This document shows positions 6,167 through 61,158 of a stretch of 64,000 nt of DNA, piece by piece; position 1 is the first letter of the stretch, and each line of letters begins with the position of its first letter. A program made the position numbers and the translations under genes. This DNA comes from Oceanotoga teriensis (GTDB lineage: Bacteria > Thermotogota > Thermotogae > Petrotogales > Petrotogaceae), in the NCBI RefSeq assembly GCF_003148465.1, contig NZ_QGGI01000003.1:91940-155939 (forward strand), in the 5' to 3' direction. The notes under the pieces are model-generated. The model saw only the letters and a program-made list of their open reading frames with translations, ran no database searches and was not told the DNA's origin.

Positions 6167-7650
6167 TGGCTTTTTTTATAGTAGGCATGATGGGTTCAGG
6201 AAAAACTACTATTGGTAAAAAAATATCTAAAATATTGAATATGAAGTTTATAGATATGGACTCTTATATAGAAGCACTTGAATCTAAGAGCATAAGAGAT
6301 ATTTTTAATGAAAAAGGAGAAATATATTTTAGAACACTTGAAACAAAAACCTTAAATCTTTTGAAAGATAAAGAAATAATAGTTTCATGTGGTGGTGGAG
6401 TCATTTTAAAAAAAGAAAATAGAGAAATATTGAAAAAATATAAAACAGTTTTTTTAGATACAGATCTCCAACTGATAAAAAATAGAATGAATTCTAAAGA
6501 AGAAATAGAAAAAAGACCTCTTTTAAAAAAAGAAAGTATAGAAAATATTTTTGAAAAAAGAAAAAACTATTATAATAAATTTAAAACTTTCAAATATGAT
6601 ATTAAAACTGAAGATAATTATATAATTTCAAGAATTATAAGGTATTTTTTAGATGAAAATCAAATTATTTCAGAAGATAACTCTATACAAAATTATAAAA
6701 TAATTCTCAATTATAAAGTCGAAGAACTTGAAGATACTTTTATAATGAGCGAAAAAGTTAATCAAATTTATGGCAAAAAAATATCAAAAAAAATAATATT
6801 AGAAAATGGTGAAAAATCTAAAAGTATAGAAAATTTTCAAAAGATAATGAATTATTTAGTGGAAAAATCTAAAAATAGATCACATACCCTTGTGGGATTT
6901 GGTGGAGGTACTATAACAGACATAACAGGTTATTCTGCATCTGTTTATAAAAGAGGCATGAAATTGAAATTAATTCCAACTACTTTATTGTCTCAAGTTG
7001 ATGCAGCAATAGGAGGTAAGAATGGTATAGATTATAAGGGTTATAAAAATATAATAGGTACATTCAAATATCCAGAAATTACAATCATTGATCCTCTTTT
7101 TATTTTAACTCTCGATGAATCAGATTATATACAAGGTTTAGTAGAAGCTTTTAAAATAAATCTTTTATCTGGAGAAGGATTTGAAATATTTGAAAAAGAA
7201 TATGAAAATATTTTAAATAGAAATATAAATTCTGTTTTAAAGATTATAAATAATAGTATAAAACAAAAAATAAATATTGTAAAAAAGGATTTTGAAGATA
7301 AAGGAATAAGGAATATTTTAAACTATGGACATACTCTTGGTCATGCTTTTGAGTCCATAACCGGGAAACCTCATGGTTTATCTGTTGCATGGGGTATTAG
7401 AAAAGAAAATGAAATTCTTAAAAAAAAGGGTATAATGGATGATCATACCTTTTATTATATAGATAGAATTCTAATAAAAATTGTTGGAGAAGAACTATTA
7501 AATATAAATATAGAAAGCAAAAATCTAAAAGATTTTATAATAAATGATAAAAAAATAAATAGAAATAAAATAAATTTAATTTCTATAATTAAACCTGGAA
7601 GTTATGAGCTATTAAATATAGATTTAAAAGATTTTTTGGAGATGATATGA
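6166..7650 (+). CDS. aroKB: bifunctional shikimate kinase / 3-dehydroquinate synthase
   Basis: N-terminal P-loop GMMGSGKTT (AroK) fused to a DHQ synthase core (GGGxxxD, HTLGHA); 494 aa. Confidence 0.8.
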   Translation: MAFFIVGMMGSGKTTIGKKISKILNMKFIDMDSYIEALESKSIRDIFNEKGEIYFRTLETKTLNLLKDKEIIVSCGGGVILKKENREILKKYKTVFLDTDLQLIKNRMNSKEEIEKRPLLKKESIENIFEKRKNYYNKFKTFKYDIKTEDNYIISRIIRYFLDENQIISEDNSIQNYKIILNYKVEELEDTFIMSEKVNQIYGKKISKKIILENGEKSKSIENFQKIMNYLVEKSKNRSHTLVGFGGGTITDITGYSASVYKRGMKLKLIPTTLLSQVDAAIGGKNGIDYKGYKNIIGTFKYPEITIIDPLFILTLDESDYIQGLVEAFKINLLSGEGFEIFEKEYENILNRNINSVLKIINNSIKQKINIVKKDFEDKGIRNILNYGHTLGHAFESITGKPHGLSVAWGIRKENEILKKKGIMDDHTFYYIDRILIKIVGEELLNINIESKNLKDFIINDKKINRNKINLISIIKPGSYELLNIDLKDFLEMI

Positions 7651-9859: not shown

Positions 9860-10030
9860 CCTCCTTTTCTCAGCTATTAGGCAGATTACTCTCACCAAAG
9901 CTAAAGAAAAGGATATCTCTACTTTGGTGACAGCGGACGCGATGTCGAACCGCAGCCATTTAAGGGCATTTCGTCACAGGGCAACGTCCCATCCCTGAGC
10001 ACTAAAACGCATGACATCTACTCTGCCACA
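9860..10030 (-). ncRNA. THF (tetrahydrofolate) riboswitch; aptamer about 9926-10030 plus an RBS-sequestering expression platform
   Basis: GC-rich island on the minus strand that matches the E. siraeum THF aptamer almost block for block (AGUAGAUG...GCGUUUUAGUG...GGGAUGGG...ACGAA...GCGG...CAUCGCGUCCGCU); downstream UCCUUUUCU can pair with GAGAAAAGGAGG at the folT RBS. Confidence 0.8.
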
Positions 10031-21215: not shown

Positions 21216-21351
21216 AATATATTATAATTGCCAGAAAATAATTAGTTTTTTTATATATTTTTAAAGTTTTTTAAGGTCTATAAGGTATTATGTTCTGAAT
21301 GTTTTATATAAAATATGATAGAATATAATAAAAAAATGGGAGGTAGAAATA

Positions 21352-22628
21352 TGAAAAAATTTAGTATGTTTCTTTTGATTATTAGTTTTTTTGTGATATC
21401 TTTTTCTAGTGTGACTGATTTTATACCTAATGATTCCAAAGCTACTTTTTATATAAAGAATCTATCTAATACTTATGAAAGTTTGAAAACAGTTCCTACT
21501 GTGGGGAGTTTTTTATCTGATCCAATAAATGCAGAAATGTATGTATCAAATTTTGTTGAAAGTTTTTTAGCATCTATGGGTATAGAACCAAAGGATTTTT
21601 TTGAATCGTTAAAGACTGATATGGCTATTTTTATACAGGAACCAGAAGAAAATACTTATATTTTTGGGATTATTTTTGGTGAACTTAAAAATCCTAATAA
21701 ATTTTATGATTCTGTATCCAAAATAATAGAGCCTTTATCAGAATCCGGTATAAGTTTTAATCCAATATATAAAGAAATTTCAGGCAAAAAATATTTGATT
21801 ATGGTTCAAGATAAATCAATTTATGAAGACAGCAAGAAGGGAGATATTAAATTTTATGAACAATATGAAAATGGAATCTATTTTAATATAAATTCTTCAG
21901 ATTTGAAAAATACAGGTTTTGCTTATATAAAAGATAACTATTTAATTGGAACTTCTACAGGAAATTTAAATGAAGATTCTGTAAATCAAAAATATTTAAA
22001 AGATGTTTCGGATTATAATTTTCTTGGTACTGCTTTTCTCGCATCTGGTTTTTTACCTAAAGATATAAATTCGATAAAAGAAATTATAAGTATAGTAGCC
22101 GAACCATCTATTGTTGAAAATATATTGAAGTCTTCAAATGGATTTGAAGTTAATTCTAATATAGATATAAATATAGAAGAGAACATAAAAATTTCAAATA
22201 CCAGTTATGTAAAAATTGATACGAGCACACAATTAAAAAATATAGAACCTATAATGAAGGAAAATAAATTAAAATATAATTATTTGGATGAAAACCATAT
22301 GGAATTTGAAATAAAAATAGATGAAAATATATCAAATACTGAAATGAAAGCTTTAAAATATAATATGTGGAAAAAATCCGATAATATTTTTATTTCAGAA
22401 GATAATGAAGAAAATTTAAATAAAAAACTTCAAAATTCTATTAAACTTTCAGAAAACAAAACATATGAAGAATTATCAAAAAAAATAGGTACAGCAAACT
22501 TAGTATTAGCTTTTGTAGATTTTTCTAAATTCTTTGAAAAATTTGGAGCTTCAGAAAATTTTGGTTTTTTATTAAATGTGAATTATTTGGGAAATGGAGC
22601 TATGAAGGCTGATTTTGTGTTAAAATAA
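21352..22628 (+). CDS. hypothetical secreted protein
   Basis: GGGAGG RBS; signal peptide MKKFSMFLLIISFFVISFSS. Confidence 0.5.
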
Positions 22629-22688
22629 TTGATTAAACCAAAAAATCTTAACTTGACAAAATTAAAATAAAATTATAAAATCTATAAT

Positions 22689-22750
22689 GCACAATGAAGT
22701 GTTAAAAGCGATGAAGCTATGCGAATAATAATTCGCATAGCTTTTTTTTA
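22689..22750 (+). promoter_or_regulatory. ANTAR-type dual hairpin (P1 and P2) overlapping an intrinsic terminator, eutG leader
   Basis: P1 GCAC-AAUGAA-GUGU; P2 AGC-GAUGAA-GCU, whose 3' arm is the 5' arm of the terminator GCUAUGCGAAUAAUAAUUCGCAUAGC followed by U8. Confidence 0.65.
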
Positions 22751-22765
22751 TTTATGAGGAGGGAC

Positions 22766-23926
22766 ATGATGAATTATTTCGGTTTAAGAACAGAAATTTA
22801 TTCTGGAGAAAATAGTTTAAATAAATTAAATGAAATCAATTTAAAAAAAATATTTATAGTTACAGATCCTTTTATGGTAAAGTCTGGAATGATTGATAAA
22901 ATAACTGAAAGTTTAAAAAAAGATATTGAATATAAAATATTTTCACAAATAGTTCCTGACCCACCATTAGAAGTTATAATGAAAGGTGTAAATGAGCTTA
23001 ATGAATTTGAATCTGAAGGAATAATTGCACTCGGTGGAGGCTCTGCTATAGATGCTGCAAAAGCAATAAGTTGTTTTTTTAATAGAATAAATGAAAAAAA
23101 GAGTAATATAAAAAATAAAACACTTTATTTTATAGCAATACCTACTACTTCTGGAACTGGTTCTGAAGTTACAAGTTTTTCAGTTATAACTGATAAAGAA
23201 AAAAATATAAAATATCCACTCATATCAGATGAATTATTGCCTAATATGGCTATTTTAGATCCGGAATTAGTTAAATCTGTACCCGATTTTATAACAGCTG
23301 ATACTGGAATGGATGTTTTAACACATGCTATAGAAGCTTATGTTTCTACTGAAGCTAATGATTTTACAGATGCTCTTTCGGAAAAAGCAATAAAAATAGT
23401 ATTTGAATATTTAAAAAGAGCATATAAAAATGGAAATGATACTCAAGCAAGAATAAAAATGCATAATGCTTCATGTATTGCAGGTATTGCTTTTAACAAT
23501 GTTTCATTGGGATTGAATCATGGAATGGCACATATTCTTGGAGGGAAATTTCATATTCCACATGGTAGAGCAAATGCTATATTATTACCTTATGTTATAG
23601 AATATAATGCTGAATTAGGAAATTATTTGGATAAAAAAACATCAACAACTGCAAAAAGATATGCCAATATAGCAAAAATACTTGGATTATCTTGTTCAAA
23701 TACTAAAATAGGCGTAAAAAATTTAATTTTTGAGATAAATAAATTAAAAAAAGAATTGAATATACCAAATTCAATAAAAGAAGTTGGTATAAAAGAAAAT
23801 GATTTTGATCAAGCTTTAGACTTTTTATCACAAAAAGCAATTGAAGACAGATGTACTGAAACTAATCCAAGAAAGCCAAAGGTAGAAGAAATAAAAACTT
23901 TATTTAAAAAAGTATATAATGGATAA
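22766..23926 (+). CDS. eutG: iron-containing alcohol dehydrogenase (ethanolamine utilisation)
   Basis: Fe-ADH motifs (GGGSAID, HGxAH); location in the eut locus. Confidence 0.8.
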   Translation: MMNYFGLRTEIYSGENSLNKLNEINLKKIFIVTDPFMVKSGMIDKITESLKKDIEYKIFSQIVPDPPLEVIMKGVNELNEFESEGIIALGGGSAIDAAKAISCFFNRINEKKSNIKNKTLYFIAIPTTSGTGSEVTSFSVITDKEKNIKYPLISDELLPNMAILDPELVKSVPDFITADTGMDVLTHAIEAYVSTEANDFTDALSEKAIKIVFEYLKRAYKNGNDTQARIKMHNASCIAGIAFNNVSLGLNHGMAHILGGKFHIPHGRANAILLPYVIEYNAELGNYLDKKTSTTAKRYANIAKILGLSCSNTKIGVKNLIFEINKLKKELNIPNSIKEVGIKENDFDQALDFLSQKAIEDRCTETNPRKPKVEEIKTLFKKVYNG

Positions 23927-23988: not shown

Positions 23989-24018
23989 TTGACAAATTAC
24001 ATGATAATAATGTAAAAT
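23989..24018 (+). promoter_or_regulatory. sigma70-like promoter (TTGACA, 18-nt spacer, TGTAAAAT)
   Basis: consensus -35 and an extended -10 upstream of the eutS leader. Confidence 0.5.
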
Positions 24019-24033
24019 AAAAAGAGAAAAAAT

Positions 24034-24122
24034 GCACAATGGAGTGTGTTTATTAAAAATAAGCAAAGAAGCTTCTAAAAGAATACATTATTTCATATTC
24101 TTTAGAAGCTATTATTTTTTTA
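24034..24122 (+). promoter_or_regulatory. ANTAR-type dual hairpin overlapping a terminator, eutS leader
   Basis: P1 GCAC-AAUGGA-GUGU; P2 AGC-AAAGAA-GCU; P2 3' arm lies inside the terminator AGCUUCUAAAAGAAUA...UAUUCUUUAGAAGCU followed by a U-run. Confidence 0.7.
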
Positions 24123-24946: not shown

Positions 24947-25360
24947 ATGAAAGAAAAAATAGTAATAGCTGATGATGAGCCTATTACAAGGCAGGATTTA
25001 CGAGAAATCCTTGAAATAGCCGGATACAATGTTGTAGCGGATGCTTCTGATGGGTTTGATGCTGTAGAACTATGTAGAAAATTTAAACCTGATCTCGTTT
25101 TAATGGACATAAAAATGCCTTTGTTGGATGGCTTAAATGCTTCAAAAATAATAACTTCAGAAGGATTAGCAGGTGGGGTTATATTATTAACAGCCTATAG
25201 TGATGAAGATTTTATAGCAAAAGCCAAAAAATCAGGTGTTATAGGTTACTTAGTTAAGCCTATTGATGAAAGATCTTTAATACCATCCATAGAAATATCT
25301 TTAAGTAAATGTGTTGAAATAAATAGAATGAAAGAAGATATAAAAAAAGCCAATAAAAAA
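24947..25360 (+). pseudogene. eutV: eutV 5' fragment (receiver domain of the ANTAR response regulator), truncated by an IS insertion
   Basis: CheY-like receiver (DDEP...D54-like...K); the reading frame ends in a TGA supplied by the first bases of the IS. Confidence 0.8.
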
Positions 25361-25402
25361 TGAACTGACCCATGTCAAGTAGACACAAAAATTAATAAAA
25401 AA

Positions 25403-26221
25403 TTATATACAATTGGATGCTTGGTTTCTGAACTCAACAGGAGCCATGCATCCAAGTTTTTTCTGGAATCTACGATTGTTATAAAAATCAATGTATTTGT
25501 GAATAGCTTTCTCTAATTCTTCAAGAGAATTAAACTTCTTACCATAAAACATCTCAGATTTAAGAGTACCAAAAAATCCTTCCATAGGGCCATTATCTAT
25601 ACATTTACCAACACGAGACATACTTTGTGTCATTTCAGATTCTTCTAGTTTAGTTTTAAATACTCTACCAGTATATTGAAATCCCCTGTCACTATGAAAT
25701 ATTGGTTTAGCTTCTGGATATTTTTCTATTGCTTTATCGAACATTTTGAATACAAGTCTGTTGTCGTTTCTATATGATGTTTCATATACCACTATATCGT
25801 TACCATGTAGATCCATTACAGGACTTAAATAAAGTTTTCTTGTATCTGTTGGTATTGAAAACTCAGTTACATCTGTCAACCATTTTTCATTTGGGTTTTC
25901 TGTACTGAAATCTCTGGATAGTATGTTCTCTTTTGTGTATTCAGGTTTTGTCCTCTTACGATTAATTTTCTTTCTTCTTATCCTGGAAGATACTCCTAAA
26001 AGTTTCATCAGTCTGTGTATATAACCTTCAGAATATTCTTTTTGGTTTAATCTGTTTATGTACATGGTCATTCTTCTGTATCCAAGTATCCCGTCATATG
26101 TAGCATGGTATTCTTGAATTAGATTACATATAGTTTCATCTTGAATTTCTTTTTGTGGTTTTTCCCTTTTTTGATTTTTGTAGTATGAACTTCTGGATAT
26201 TTTCAACACATCACACAACAT
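25403..26221 (-). CDS. IS3-family transposase OrfB (rve integrase core; made as OrfAB by a -1 frameshift)
   Basis: LCDVLKISRSSYYK start typical of IS3/IS150 OrfB; DDE core (HSDRG...). Confidence 0.8.
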   Translation of the reverse strand: MLCDVLKISRSSYYKNQKREKPQKEIQDETICNLIQEYHATYDGILGYRRMTMYINRLNQKEYSEGYIHRLMKLLGVSSRIRRKKINRKRTKPEYTKENILSRDFSTENPNEKWLTDVTEFSIPTDTRKLYLSPVMDLHGNDIVVYETSYRNDNRLVFKMFDKAIEKYPEAKPIFHSDRGFQYTGRVFKTKLEESEMTQSMSRVGKCIDNGPMEGFFGTLKSEMFYGKKFNSLEELEKAIHKYIDFYNNRRFQKKLGCMAPVEFRNQASNCI

Positions 26222-26280
26222 TTTAACTGTGTATCCTTTGGTTTTGTAGTAATCTACCGTTTTGTATTCACCATATTGTT

Positions 26281-26985
26281 TTACTCTCGAGATTCTCTTT
26301 CTTTTTGGAATTCCTCTTTTTTTTTATGTACTTCTAACTCAAAAGCTAATCTTTTGTTTTTAGCTCTTTCTCTTTCCAATTCAAGTTTTAATTTCTGATT
26401 TTCTGTCAGTTCATCTTCTTTTATGTCAGTTTTAGATTTAGGACCACGTTTCCCATATTTGAGTGATTCAGGACCTTTGTTTAAATACATCTTTGTCCAT
26501 TTATATACTGAAGAATATTTTATTGCATGTTTATCTGCAGCTTCTTTGTAGTTCATATCGTTGTTTATTACCCATTTAACTATTTCTAATCTTTCTTTGT
26601 ATGTAGTTTTTCTTGACTCCATGGTATAGACATCTCCTTTCGGATCATAATCTTTCAATTCTATACCATTATAATACTTATTTATCCAATTTTTTATTAT
26701 TGAAACATGAATATCATATTTTACTGATAAATCCATGGCTGAAAATTTTCCATCTATGTATTTTTTAACTACAAATAGCTTGAATTCCTTACTGTATGAT
26801 TTATTTCTTTTTGTTATTTCAAATACTTTTTCTCCATGTTGTATATATCTGTGATACCAATCACTTAAAGATGATTTATCACATCCCACTGATTTTGATA
26901 TACTTTTGAAACTTCCTTTTCCTGCTATGTAATCTTTACATGCTTTTACCTTTGTTTCTTTACTATATTTCCCTTTTCTCGACAT
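26281..26985 (-). CDS. IS3-family transposase OrfA (HTH)
   Basis: DNA-binding HTH and leucine-zipper region; ends inside the A AAA AAA AAG frameshift window. Confidence 0.8.
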   Translation of the reverse strand: MSRKGKYSKETKVKACKDYIAGKGSFKSISKSVGCDKSSLSDWYHRYIQHGEKVFEITKRNKSYSKEFKLFVVKKYIDGKFSAMDLSVKYDIHVSIIKNWINKYYNGIELKDYDPKGDVYTMESRKTTYKERLEIVKWVINNDMNYKEAADKHAIKYSSVYKWTKMYLNKGPESLKYGKRGPKSKTDIKEDELTENQKLKLELERERAKNKRLAFELEVHKKKEEFQKERESRE

Positions 26986-27055
26986 AATAAATATACCTCC
27001 AAAGCAGCTTTGTAATTTTTATTAATTACGTGTCTACTTTGGAGGTATCATATCA

Positions 27056-27220
27056 AAACTTGAAGATAGAAAAATTATAGAAAAAGCAAAGGGTATACTA
27101 ATGGAAAAAGAAAATTTATCTGAAAAAACTGCTTTTGAAAGAATAAGAACATTAAGTATGAATAAAAGATGTTCTATGAAAGATATAGCAGAGGCTATTG
27201 TGATAAGTTATGAAGAGTAA
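27056..27220 (+). pseudogene. eutV: eutV 3' fragment (ANTAR domain)
   Basis: KLEDRKIIEKAKGILMEKENLSEKTAFERIRTLSMNKRCSMKDIAEAIV is a canonical ANTAR motif; it is in frame with the 5' fragment once the IS and one AAA copy are removed. Confidence 0.8.
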
Positions 27221-28616
27221 AATATGTGAATTATGTAAAAAATATACAGACCTTGATGAAGAAGATATAAAAATATTAGAAAACTATTCTTTATGTATGG
27301 ATGCAGTAGCTGATATTGAAAATGCTGATGTATTTATAGATAGTTTGACAAGAGATAATGATGAAGCTATAGTGATAGCCCAAGCTAAGCCTAAAAATAC
27401 AAAATCAATGTATAACAGATCTGTTATTGGTGAAATAGCTTATAGAAAAAATGAACCAGCAGTTTTAAGGACTTTACAACTTGGAATATCGACCAAAGAT
27501 ATAAAAGCACTAACTCAAGAAGAAGTTAGTGTAAGGCAAACAGTAGCCCCAATAAAAAATAAAGATAAAGTAATAGGAGTTTTAATCATAGAAAAAGATA
27601 TAACAGAGAAAATAAATAAAGATAAATATATGGAAGTATTGGAACAGAGTTATGAAAAGCTTACAGATACTTTGTTGTATATGACTGAAAATGATGGTAC
27701 TATAACAAATCATATTGATGAAATAATAATGATGTTTGATGAAGAGGGAATACTAAAATTTGCCAATTCAGTAGCTGAAGAATTATATTTAAAACTTGGG
27801 TACAGAGATAACCTTATAGGTATGAAATATGATAATGTTTCTCTTGATGATTCGAAGTTTAAAGATATAATAAATGAAGGTTGTATACAAGAAAGTGAGA
27901 TAAATTATGGGAAATATTTTTTTAATATAAAAAAAATAATATCCAGTAGAGAATCTTTCAAATTAATTCTAATGATTAAGGATATAACGGATATGAAAGA
28001 AAAAGAAAAAGAACTCATACTAAAATCTGTAGCAATAAAAGAAATACATCATAGAGTAAAAAATAATCTTCAAACTATTGCCAGTTTATTGAGACTTCAA
28101 TCAAGGAGATGTGTTAGCGAAGAAGCTAAAAATGCATTAAATGAAAGTATGAATAGAATTTTAAGCATATCTGCTACTCATGAAATACTTTCTCAAGAAG
28201 GTCTTGATGAACTTTATATATTTGAGGTTATAAAGAACATAAAAACAAGTATTATGCGGGCTTACAGAAATCCGAATGCAGAACTTATAATAAATTTAAT
28301 GGGTGATGATTTCAAAATAAGCTCTGATAAATCAACATCTATAGCTCTCATAATAAATGAATTACTTCAAAATTGTATAAAATATGCTTTTATAGGGAAA
28401 GAAAAAGGACAAATAGATATAAAAATTGAAAGAGGTGATTTATATTCTACAATATCAATTATAGATAATGGTATTGGTTTTGATATAAATCATATGAAAA
28501 AAAATAGTCTTGGTTTTACAATAGTAGAGAGTCTTGTCAAAGACAAACTTTATGGTAATATAAAAATAAATTCTGATAAAAATGGAACGAAAGTTTTGTT
28601 TGATTTTAAAAATTAA
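27210..28616 (+). CDS. eutW: sensor histidine kinase EutW
   Basis: HHRVKNNLQ H-box and an HATPase_c C-terminus; overlaps the eutV 3' end as in Firmicutes eut loci. Confidence 0.8.
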   Translation: MKSKICELCKKYTDLDEEDIKILENYSLCMDAVADIENADVFIDSLTRDNDEAIVIAQAKPKNTKSMYNRSVIGEIAYRKNEPAVLRTLQLGISTKDIKALTQEEVSVRQTVAPIKNKDKVIGVLIIEKDITEKINKDKYMEVLEQSYEKLTDTLLYMTENDGTITNHIDEIIMMFDEEGILKFANSVAEELYLKLGYRDNLIGMKYDNVSLDDSKFKDIINEGCIQESEINYGKYFFNIKKIISSRESFKLILMIKDITDMKEKEKELILKSVAIKEIHHRVKNNLQTIASLLRLQSRRCVSEEAKNALNESMNRILSISATHEILSQEGLDELYIFEVIKNIKTSIMRAYRNPNAELIINLMGDDFKISSDKSTSIALIINELLQNCIKYAFIGKEKGQIDIKIERGDLYSTISIIDNGIGFDINHMKKNSLGFTIVESLVKDKLYGNIKINSDKNGTKVLFDFKN

Positions 28617-28625
28617 ATAATAAAA

Positions 28626-28695
28626 TACAATGATGTATTAAAAAAAGCAATGAGGCTTAAAACTATTTTTTATAGTTTTAAGCCTTTTTATTTTT
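28626..28695 (+). promoter_or_regulatory. ANTAR-type dual hairpin overlapping a terminator, eutA leader
   Basis: P1 UAC-AAUGAU-GUA; P2 AGC-AAUGAG-GCU; terminator AGGCUUAAAACUAU-UUUUU-AUAGUUUUAAGCCU followed by a U-run. Confidence 0.7.
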
Positions 28696-28714
28696 CAAAA
28701 GAAGGTGTCGTTGA

Positions 28715-33642: not shown

Positions 33643-35108
33643 TGTTGCAGGATAAAGACTTATTATCAATACAAGAAGTAAGAGATTTAGTAAAAAAAGC
33701 AAAAGAAGCTCAAAAAATTCTTGCTAATATGAATCAAGAACAGATAAATAAAATAGTAAAAGCAATTTCAGAAGCTGGTTATACAAATAGAGAAAAATTG
33801 GCTAAAATGGCTCATGAAGAAACTGGATTTGGAAAATATCAGGATAAAATAGTAAAAAATACATTTGCCAGTAAAGTGGTTTATGAAAATATAAAAGATT
33901 TAAAAACTGTAGGTATTTTAAATGAAGATAAAGAAAATAAAATATTAGAAATTGCTGTACCAGTAGGAGTTGTAGCTGGATTAATTCCATCAACAAATCC
34001 AACTTCAACTGCAATTTATAAAGCAATGATAGCTTTAAAAGCAGGAAATTCAATAGTTTTTTCACCACATCCAAATGCTAAAAAATGTATATTAGAAACT
34101 GTAAAAGTTATAAAAGAAGCTGCTTTAAAAGCAGGAATGCCTGAAGATGCTATTTCTTGTATAAGTATTCCAAGTATGCAAGGAACTACAGAATTGATGA
34201 AACATGATGATGTTTCTCTTATACTTGCAACAGGTGGTTCGGCTATGGTAAAAGCTGCCTATAGTTCGGGTACTCCTGCAATAGGTGTTGGACCGGGAAA
34301 TGGACCAGCTTTTATTGAAAAATCTGCAAATATAAAATTAGCTGTAAAAAGAATAATAGATAGTAAAACATTTGATAATGGTACTATTTGTGCTTCTGAA
34401 CAATCCATTGTTGTAGAAAAAGAAACTGAAGAAAAAGTTGTAAAAGAATTAAAAGCTCAAGGTGCATATTTTATGACAAAAGAAGAAGCAGACAAATTGT
34501 CTAAATTTATCTTGAGATCAAATGGAACTATGAATCCTCAAATAGTTGGTAAAAGTCCACAAGTTATAGCTGATCTTGCTGGAATAAAGATTCCTGAAAA
34601 TACAAAGGTATTGATAGCCTACGAAGAAAATGTTGGTCCTAAATATCCATATTCAAGAGAAAAATTAGCTCCAATACTTGCTTTCTATGTTGAAAAAGAT
34701 TGGAAATCGGCATGTGACAGATGTATTCAAGTTTTATACAATGAAGGTGCTGGCCATACAATGATAATTCATAGTGAAAATGAAAAAATAATAAAAGAAT
34801 TTGCATTGAAAAAACCAGTATCAAGAATTTTAATAAATACTCCAGGTTCATTGGGTGGAATAGGAGGAACAACAAATTTAGTTCCTGCATTAACACTTGG
34901 ATGTGGTGCTGTTGGAGGAAGTGCTACATCAGATAATATAGGACCTATGAACTTAATAAATATAAGAAGAGCAGTATATGGAATACGTGAACTTGAAGAT
35001 TTAAAAGAAAATAAAGATTCAAATGAAAACAATAATACAATTTCTGAAGATTATGTAAATTTAATAGTTGAAAAAATAGTACAAAAATTAAAAGAAAAAA
35101 TAAATTAA
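33639..35108 (+). CDS. eutE: CoA-acylating acetaldehyde dehydrogenase
   Basis: ALDH fold with catalytic Cys (GTICASEQS); N-terminal amphipathic helix typical of an encapsulation peptide. Confidence 0.85.
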   Translation: MMLQDKDLLSIQEVRDLVKKAKEAQKILANMNQEQINKIVKAISEAGYTNREKLAKMAHEETGFGKYQDKIVKNTFASKVVYENIKDLKTVGILNEDKENKILEIAVPVGVVAGLIPSTNPTSTAIYKAMIALKAGNSIVFSPHPNAKKCILETVKVIKEAALKAGMPEDAISCISIPSMQGTTELMKHDDVSLILATGGSAMVKAAYSSGTPAIGVGPGNGPAFIEKSANIKLAVKRIIDSKTFDNGTICASEQSIVVEKETEEKVVKELKAQGAYFMTKEEADKLSKFILRSNGTMNPQIVGKSPQVIADLAGIKIPENTKVLIAYEENVGPKYPYSREKLAPILAFYVEKDWKSACDRCIQVLYNEGAGHTMIIHSENEKIIKEFALKKPVSRILINTPGSLGGIGGTTNLVPALTLGCGAVGGSATSDNIGPMNLINIRRAVYGIRELEDLKENKDSNENNNTISEDYVNLIVEKIVQKLKEKIN

Positions 35109-56471: not shown

Positions 56472-56546
56472 ATGGCAGCCCCACGGGGAATCGAACCCCG
56501 ACTCTCGGACTGAGAATCCGATGGACTGGCCGTTATCCTATGGGGC
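56472..56546 (-). tRNA. tRNA-Glu (anticodon CUC), CCA encoded
   Basis: manual cloverleaf: acceptor GGCCCCA/UGGGGCU, anticodon stem UCGGA/UCCGA, loop UUCUCAG, T-arm CGGGG-UUCGAUU-CCCCG, discriminator G, CCA. Confidence 0.8.
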
Positions 56547-56622
56547 CATAACAAGAGATATTATACCATTCTTTTTTAGTTTTGTAAATACTTTTTTTGA
56601 AAACTTTATGCAAAAATAATAT

Positions 56623-61002: not shown

Positions 61003-61114
61003 AATTCTTTTTGGGACTACACGTGGCTGGGTCCTGCGCAACGAAAACTAGTGAAACTGGTCAGGCCCGGAAGGGAGCAGCCATAAGCTTTGTCTTTTGT
61101 GTGCCGCAGGGAAG
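61003..61114 (+). ncRNA. ffs: signal recognition particle RNA (small bacterial SRP RNA / 4.5S)
   Basis: GC-rich island; conserved domain IV sequence GUCAGGCCCGGAAGGGAGCAGCC; terminal helix GUGGCUG/CAGCCAC; ends in a U-run. Confidence 0.75.
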
Positions 61115-61158
61115 CTCAGCCACCTTTTTTTATATATTTTATTATGAGGGGGAATAAA

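Follow-up and report, generated by a model that had tools for sequence, protein, structure and literature searches.

What controls eutG in the Thermotogota bacterium Oceanotoga teriensis? The question arises from a stretch of 64,000 nucleotides (64 kb) of contig NZ_QGGI01000003.1 (positions 91,940 to 155,939 of the forward strand), referred to here as the window, in which a short leader at 22689-22750 stands in front of eutG within a eut locus. An original prediction, made from the letters of the window, had interpreted this leader as a EutV-type ANTAR target, that is, two hairpins with six-membered loops, P1 and P2, the second of which overlaps a transcription terminator. The anatomy of the leader, its counterparts in orthologous loci, the covariation of its stems and a covariance model built without the window all support this architecture. 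Judging from these data, the eutG leader is very probably a transcription attenuator that would respond to EutV, an ANTAR protein, and so control eutG. The locus raises a second question as well, because the eutV gene in the window is split by an insertion sequence (IS).

The antitermination elements operated by EutV in Enterococcus faecalis have reportedly been described by Fox et al. in 2009, and also by Ramesh et al. in 2012 (PMC3369931) and by Walshe et al. in 2022 (PMC8934654). In that species, EutV binds ANTAR dual-hexaloop elements in the eutP, eutG, eutS and eutA leaders, and EutV/ANTAR targets have been described for the eut loci of Enterococcus, Listeria and Clostridium (PMC3369931, PMC8934654).

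Two hexaloop hairpins and an overlapping terminator precede eutG

Direct reading of the sequence confirmed the coordinates and letters of P1 and P2, both of them short hairpins with loops of 6 nucleotides (nt) (Table 1). In the class definition, such tandem hairpins have stems of at least 3 base pairs (bp) and a 6-nt terminal loop (PMC3369931), and this is what both hairpins show. P1 can add a fourth pair, the G-U pair G22689-U22702, so that its stem is 3-4 bp long; the stem of P2 is exactly 3 bp, and the next flanking position is an A-A mismatch. The P1 loop, AAUGAA, has both A1 and G4 and is closed by an A-U and a C-G pair. The P2 loop, GAUGAA, has G4 and begins with the variant G1, so G4 is found in both loops and A1 in the first. 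Another register of P2, which would give a loop starting with A, was rejected, as just one flanking pair remains in it. The 5-nt linker lies at the lower limit of the E. faecalis working range, natural linkers there spanning 5-12 nt and linkers of 3 nt or 14 nt impairing induction (PMC3369931).

The terminator overlaps P2 as had been predicted. Its 5' arm includes the last three bases of the P2 loop and the 3' arm of P2, and GCU at 22716-22718, the first three nucleotides of the terminator core, belongs to both structures, which makes them mutually exclusive. The minimum-energy fold of 22670-22775 obtained with RNAfold consists of P1 and the 14-bp terminator (-25.3 kcal/mol; z = -3.4 against dinucleotide shuffles), and a consensus terminator scan lists the same terminator as a 14-pair stem. 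Forcing P2 to form costs about 8 kcal/mol (-22.3 to -14.4) and removes six basal pairs of the terminator, leaving an 8-bp hairpin that is parted from the U tract by an unpaired AGC. The spacing to the gene had been given as 12 nt between the terminator and the ribosome-binding site of eutG; this has to be corrected, since 6-8 nt separate the end of the U tract from the Shine-Dalgarno sequence, which reads GAGGAGGG and lies at 22756-22763.

A sigma-70-type promoter is predicted about 8 nt upstream of P1. The TTGACA...AAAATTATAAAAT block upstream of eutG is kept in the Clostridium loci L089 and L090, and a similar block is found in L082 and L083. Because the promoter is so close to P1 and homologous to those of Clostridium, the terminator falls inside the predicted leader and not outside the transcribed region. 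Transcription would start at approximately 22687-22689, which would leave P1 at the 5' terminus of the transcript.

The downstream gene is, in agreement with the original prediction, an iron alcohol dehydrogenase gene at the eutG position of a eut locus. Its product matches the EutG family of NCBIfam with E = 1e-66, under the curated cut-off, and the name eutG rests on the position of the gene in the locus. The automatic call of the open reading frame starts at the first in-frame ATG, 22754. This is probably too early, because sibling assemblies call a product of 385 amino acids (aa); the likely start is instead the ATG at 22766 or that at 22769. An exact-protein look-up with the EutG of the window found no recorded identical entry.

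Table 1. Coordinates of the eut features, numbered from the first letter of the window
Feature	Position	Strand	Description and basis
Promoter, sigma-70 type (predicted)	22653..22681	+	TTGACA (22653), 17 nt, TAAAAT (ends 22681); 11/12 consensus positions
P1 hairpin	core 22690-22701, extended 22689..22702	+	(G)CAC-AAUGAA-GUG(U); sequence read directly
P1-P2 linker	22702-22706	+	UUAAA; 5 nt counting 3-bp stems; loop-to-loop 11 nt
P2 hairpin (antiterminator)	22707-22718	+	AGC-GAUGAA-GCU; sequence read directly
Terminator	22713..22749	+	core GCUAUGCGAAU-AAUA-AUUCGCAUAGC, 22716-22741; 14-bp stem, 22713-22744; U8, 22742-22749
eutG	22756..23926	+	iron-containing alcohol dehydrogenase; NCBIfam iron-ADH families
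eutS-leader site	24031..24121	+	P1 CAC-AAUGGA-GUG, 24035-24046; 15-nt linker; P2 AGC-AAAGAA-GCU, 24062-24073
eutV, 5' part	24947..25363	+	receiver domain and coiled-coil linker, 138 codons; Pfam Response_reg E = 6e-28
IS3-family insertion sequence	25361..27054	-	1694 bp; NCBIfam transpos_IS3 E = 3e-81
eutV, 3' part	27056..27222	+	ANTAR domain, KLEDRKIIEKAKGIL...ISYEE*; aligns with residues 140-190 of E. faecalis EutV, PDB 6WSH
eutW	27210..28616	+	sensor histidine kinase, EutV partner; GAF_PdtaS, HisKA_2 and HATPase_c domains
eutA-leader site (eutW-eutA intercistronic)	28622..28698	+	P1 UAC-AAUGAU-GUA, 28626-28637; P2 AGC-AAUGAG-GCU, 28646-28657

Sister sites precede eutS and eutA

The genes of the locus follow the order eutG-eutS-eutP-eutV-eutW-eutA-eutB, and between the receiver part of eutV and eutW lies a pair of IS3-family transposase genes that run in the opposite direction. 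Two other sites had been mentioned alongside the eutG site, and the same P1-linker-P2-terminator design was indeed found before eutS and before eutA. P2 runs into a terminator at all three sites of the window, and a U tract follows the terminators of the eutS leader (24070-24110) and of the eutA leader (28652-28686). The eutS leader has its own promoter, with TTGACA from 23989 and TAAAAT ending at 24018.

A loose form of the motif, with two 3-bp hexaloop hairpins having R..G.. loops and lying 2-16 nt apart, matched 24 times when both strands of the window were counted and is not significant alone, because so many matches arise in DNA with 27% G+C. A more specific pattern, [YAC-RA.G..-GUR]-3..20 nt-[RGC-R..G..-GCY], matched three times, each time in a plus-strand eut leader, and matched in 0 of 300 Markov-1 simulations, the pattern having been written after the sites were seen. 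The combination of regular expressions with a terminator scanner was noisy, giving many false pairs in AT-rich DNA, and was replaced by covariance models.

A search of Rfam, which had been suggested together with the original prediction, was also run. Over the whole window at gathering thresholds it gave no relevant family for the eutG leader, and over 22500-22900 at E values up to 10 it gave nothing near a gathering score (best E 0.63, mir-965; top score 18.8 bits; both spurious). Among the results from Rfam 15 there was no family of ANTAR targets. This search is thus uninformative and decides neither way, because Rfam returned no family for the motif.

The element is conserved in orthologous leaders and its stems covary

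Comparison loci were fetched by the closest EutW homologues and were joined by the EutW-type loci of a genome-collection scan with a EutW alignment, in which the HHRVKNNL pattern mostly drew PdtaS kinases of Actinomycetota and about 12 of 80 loci were EutW-type. The P1-linker-P2 unit was present in 18 of 18 leaders before eutG, eutS and eutA (window, L081-L084, L089 and L090). Six eutG leaders outside the window were examined, from four Clostridium loci (L082, L083, L089 and L090), C. tunisiense (L001) and Paraclostridium (L022), and each of them has the two hairpins followed by a terminator; the folded extract of L001 stops short of its terminator, which was read from the leader sequence. In these leaders and in that of the window, seven in all, the 5' arm of the terminator opens with the 3' arm of P2. 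When P2 is forced in the five other complete eutG leaders, the cost is 4-8 kcal/mol and the shortened hairpin no longer adjoins the U tract. In L082 and L083, P1 and its flanks read UAUGCACAAUGAAGUGU, almost identical to the window. The upstream neighbours of the eutG leaders are mutually unrelated, which indicates that the unit goes with eutG, independently of the gene that precedes it.

In a MAFFT-only alignment of the 18 sites, 94% of the cells were paired, against 27-48% in slid controls, and 5 of 10 pairs had double-sided changes. A model built from the 18 sites (R1) retrieved 26 sites from 13 non-window loci. In the alignment of these 26 sites, which was fitted to the model and thereby favours the structure, 94% of the cells were paired (25-48% in slid controls), 7 of 10 pairs had double-sided changes and 0 of 500 shuffles reached the observed covariation score. 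The outer pairs of P1 and P2 covary in homologous leaders, a check that had been suggested with the original prediction, and the structure is conserved there. The pairs that close the loops hardly change: in P1 (AC..GU) the C-G pair occurs in 26 of 26 homologous sites and the A-U pair in 25 of 26, and in P2 the GC..GC pairs occur in 26 of 26. The window has these same near-invariant pairs, shared in P1 with A27 C28/G35 U36 of E. faecalis. As the inner pairs never vary, the covariation support comes from the outer pairs. Mutagenesis of P1 of the E. faecalis eutP leader showed the loop-closing pairs to be sequence-specific, a requirement with which the invariant or near-invariant AC..GU and GC..GC agree (PMC3369931). 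Column-wise covariation of the terminator was not counted, because the window terminator differs in sequence and length and is out of register in a whole-leader MAFFT alignment; terminators were compared by per-sequence folds instead.

A second covariance model (R2), made from the 26 non-window sites only, was run unfiltered over both strands of the window (128 kb). It placed the three eut-leader sites first to third: the eutS leader at 46.4 bits (E 1.4e-08), the eutA leader at 43.5 bits (E 6.2e-08) and the eutG leader at 21.3 bits (E about 0.007), with the next match at 17.8 bits (E 0.041). The eutG site is recovered independently and is clearly the weakest of the three.

Some further matches deserve mention. 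The eutS leaders (window 24031-24077; L082, L083, L084, L089 and L090) all have a P1-P2 linker of 14-15 nt, the length of the 'long linker' eutP mutant of E. faecalis that lost induction. Since this length is conserved and these sites have the highest model scores, the limits on linker length determined with eutP may not hold for all sites. In L022, a complete ANTAR-like dual hairpin on the minus strand (7484-7523, 38.6 bits) mirrors the plus-strand site at 7398-7439. It covers the opposite strand of the 3' arm of the Paraclostridium eutA-leader terminator and of the hairpin that follows, and is explained either as a side effect of a terminator that forms a long palindrome or as an antisense element. 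A perfect P2-like 12-mer (AGCGAAGAAGCT) is found inside eutW at 28116-28127, and a weak model match of 12-14 bits lies at 33675-33714, at the start of an aldehyde dehydrogenase gene (eutE). Both were judged to be chance matches and rejected as ANTAR targets, as neither has a P1 partner and a terminator.

An insertion sequence splits eutV in the window

The cognate ANTAR regulator is encoded in the locus, but the IS3-family element splits its gene after Lys138, between the receiver and the ANTAR domain. The 5' reading frame ends at a stop codon within the inserted element, and a Pfam search with this part gave no ANTAR match. The ANTAR part has no canonical in-frame start before an internal Met. 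Expression of an ANTAR-only fragment from the end of the IS was considered and is unlikely, as a start at this Met would delete the first helix.

The element carries orfA (26281-26985) and orfB (25403-26221), both on the minus strand, has imperfect terminal inverted repeats and is flanked on both sides by AAAA; no second copy is present within the 64-kb window. The 1694-bp insertion is missing from four sibling contigs, those carrying an identical EutW, which share 99.3-99.6% identity with the window over the locus and in which eutV is intact. An intact EutV of 191 aa is encoded in L085-L088, and the intact Oceanotoga EutV aligns with E. faecalis EutV (PDB 6WSH/6WW6) over its full length with E = 8e-62. 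In the intact protein of L087 (5436-6008), a Phe aligns with E. faecalis Tyr164, and Met172 is conserved. The truncated allele occurs also in a separate read-set assembly, in which the contig ends at the IS. Because the IS3 element splits eutV, the three terminators have probably lost their antiterminator. We predict that they stay closed and that the locus would be uninducible, unless another ANTAR protein substitutes for EutV.

EutW, the partner kinase, shares 100% identity with a protein from Oceanotoga sp. DSM 15011, and its next relatives are found in Clostridium, at 61-64% identity. The EUT2I locus of Oceanotoga teriensis has already been described (Sutter et al. 2021, PMC8217296); it is reported to be the only microcompartment locus in Thermotogae and a probable recent transfer from a Firmicute (PMC8217296). 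The three sites are best explained as having entered Oceanotoga along with an EUT microcompartment locus of the Clostridium type, gained by horizontal transfer.

Deviations of the eutG site and alternative explanations

Among the three sites, that of eutG is the most reduced, with its 3-bp P2, 5-nt linker, G1 in the second loop and predicted 5'-terminal P1. The G1 of P2 had been regarded as a minor variant. It recurs naturally, in 2 of 52 homologous loops, those of the L089 eutS leader (1 of 26 first loops) and of the L083 eutA leader (1 of 26 second loops), and the Listeria monocytogenes eutA leader in the published seed alignment has the P2 AAGC-GAUGAA-GCUU, with G at loop position 1 (Ramesh 2012, Fig. 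S1). G4, by contrast, shows no variation among the homologous loops (52 of 52, barring one misaligned row). In the crystal structure of EutV with RNA, G4 stacks on Tyr164 and A1 has no direct contact with the protein; it was suggested that A1 is kept for the folding of the loop (PMC8934654). A fourth P2 pair is missing in 4 of the 26 homologues too. The linker is the shortest of 29 sites, the other eutG leaders having 8-11 nt. The 27-50 nt that separate the -10 element from P1 in the Clostridium leaders are absent here, so that P1 would begin 0-2 nt after the predicted start.

A site reduced in this way could be a decayed copy, in which a real terminator and ANTAR-homologous hairpins persist but no longer respond to EutV, acting as a constitutive attenuator or insulator that would hold eutG expression low and fixed. 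We regard this as unlikely, although a number of observations favour it or weigh against a EutV-responsive switch. The model ranks the eutG site lowest, at 21 bits, its siblings reaching 44-46 bits. Its loop-to-loop distance of 11 nt is the shortest of the set and near that of the 'short linker' eutP mutant of E. faecalis, which lost induction, and changing A1 to another base in either loop lowered induction and binding in that species (PMC3369931). A transcription start a few bases farther downstream would truncate P1, and a perfect TATAAT at 22683-22688 would imply such a start, but it is without a usable -35 element. All Oceanotoga contigs compared carry one and the same eutG leader, so the genus offers no variation and no comparative information. 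In the similar locus of Fusobacterium nucleatum, the eutG, eutS and eutV transcripts did not rise on ethanolamine (PMC11796344), for which reason we keep a small probability on a non-responsive copy. Finally, with eutV split, the switch in this genome is predicted not to be operable by its cognate EutV. Against decay, however, stands the retention of every feature held to be essential, namely a G4 in each of the two loops, closing pairs of the invariant kind and a P2 that overlaps the terminator. G1 and the 3-bp P2 recur in other natural sites, and the base replaced by G1 is one that the protein does not contact in the crystal structure. Counted with a 4-bp P1 and a 3-bp P2, the single-stranded linker (4-5 nt) approximates that of L082. 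The perfect conservation of the leader among Oceanotoga strains that differ by about 0.5% elsewhere points the same way, weakly, as it concerns 132 nt only.

The two remaining explanations dispense with EutV altogether. If the terminator were the ordinary terminator of the upstream 437-aa gene, beside which two mini-hairpins arose by chance in AT-rich DNA, one could cite its position 85 nt past the upstream stop codon, the lack of any other terminator between them in the terminator scan and the frequency of the loose dual-hexaloop motif. This is very improbable, because the upstream gene and P1 have a promoter between them, the unit of two hairpins and terminator precedes eutG in six loci with unrelated upstream genes, and the specific motif is confined to the three eut leaders and absent from all simulations; the site was also found by the model that excludes the window, and the comparative data contradict a chance origin. 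Least probable of all is a metabolite-binding riboswitch, or another known leader RNA, in place of a protein-dependent antiterminator. In its favour counts that the eut locus of E. faecalis also uses an adenosylcobalamin (AdoCbl) riboswitch, the EutX/Rli55 system. The leader at hand, however, is about 60 nt long and fully explained by P1, P2 and the terminator, and no Rfam family reached its threshold in 22500-22900 even when E values up to 10 were admitted.

A proposed model for the control of eutG

We hypothesize that transcription starts at the conserved promoter about 8 nt upstream of P1 and that, by default, the RNA would fold into P1 and the strong intrinsic terminator, so that transcription would stop near 22749, before the ribosome-binding site of eutG. 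Where the EutW kinase senses ethanolamine, phosphorylated dimeric EutV would bind the two hexaloops and hold the weak 3-bp P2, keeping GCU (22716-22718) and the loop bases that precede it from the base of the terminator. The leftover 8-bp hairpin would no longer adjoin the U tract, and RNA polymerase would then read through into eutG.

This is a known mechanism, and its novelty is that of a further example in a new host; as a textbook EutV/ANTAR attenuator it adds little weight to the understanding of the mechanism itself, and the IS-split eutV is the only feature that a specialist might follow up. Two more speculative readings, which we hold to be possible but doubtful, go further: that the genome is a natural regulator knock-out with a cryptic locus, and that the eutG site is a minimal working ANTAR target. 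If the former were true, the sole antiterminator encoded by the locus would have lost its ANTAR domain to the IS3 insertion, three ANTAR-gated terminators would be orphaned and a horizontally acquired microcompartment locus would be silent, a state that could be reversed by excision of the IS only, or rescued by cross-talk from another ANTAR protein. If the eutG site works where eutV is intact, it would be a smaller functional ANTAR target than any tested, with a loop-to-loop spacing of 11 nt, a P2 of 3 bp, G1 and a P1 formed from the first nucleotides of the transcript.

The locus would also illustrate how promoters, dual hairpins and terminators moved intact, along with an EUT microcompartment locus, from a donor resembling Clostridium into the genome of a Thermotogota member. 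The pair of strains with intact and IS-split eutV offers a ready-made test of how far the terminators depend on EutV, and the combination of G1 with a very tight spacing of the hairpins is a natural example that may be useful for refining search models of ANTAR targets.

Other features of the window

The gene upstream of the eut locus is an open reading frame of 437 aa (21315-22628, plus strand) that lies between yajC and the locus. It has an N-terminal hydrophobic, signal-like segment, gave no Pfam or NCBIfam match and is conserved in the sibling Oceanotoga contigs. Elsewhere in the window, we observed a tetrahydrofolate (THF) riboswitch on the minus strand at 9929-10027 (Rfam RF01831, 61 bits, E = 2.5e-11), a tRNA gene on the minus strand at 56476-56547 (58.5 bits) and a small bacterial signal recognition particle (SRP) RNA on the plus strand at 61025-61124 (72.9 bits).

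Comparison with known systems

The eutG leader shares with the E. faecalis leaders two short hexaloop hairpins, with G4 in both loops and A1 in that of P1, the loop-closing pairs AC..GU in P1 and GC..GC in P2, and a P2 whose 3' arm begins an intrinsic terminator. In both organisms the eut locus has several such sites and encodes a EutV/EutW two-component pair, with eutV split in the window and the intact Oceanotoga EutV homologous over its full length. In contrast to E. faecalis, the Oceanotoga P2 loop starts with G, the stems have 3-4 bp instead of 4-7 bp, and the loop-to-loop distance is 11 nt instead of about 16-20 nt. P1 stands at the predicted 5' end of the RNA, no site precedes a leading eutP, the Oceanotoga EutV has Phe for Tyr164, and the host belongs to Thermotogota. 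A further difference is that no EutX-type AdoCbl riboswitch small RNA (sRNA) was found in the window; because the Rfam scan found no cobalamin riboswitch of any kind in these 64 kb, the locus seems to lack the AdoCbl-sensing sRNA layer that is formed by EutX in E. faecalis and by Rli55 in Listeria.

The eutA leader of L. monocytogenes has the identical GAUGAA loop and the same P2 closing pairs; it differs from the Oceanotoga leader in belonging to another gene, eutA, and another organism, and in having a 4-bp P2 stem. The NasR/nasF and AmiR/amiE leaders are alike in principle, an ANTAR protein there also stabilising a hexaloop hairpin that competes with a terminator, but their sensor domains, operons and sequence details are different and the leaders are not homologous. 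For F. nucleatum, a covariance search of 2012 reported only one site (Ramesh 2012).

The direct relatives of the Oceanotoga element are the EUT2-type loci of Clostridium, among them C. difficile 630, for which three sites have been reported (Ramesh 2012, Table S1), and L082, L083, L089 and L090. They share with Oceanotoga the gene order eutG-eutS-eutP-eutV-eutW-eutA-B-C and the placement of the three sites, and their promoter is homologous. Oceanotoga departs from them in the loss of the segment between the -10 element and P1, in a shorter linker and in G1 of the second loop, and its terminator stem reads AUGCGAAU, compared with CCAUGGGAA in Clostridium.

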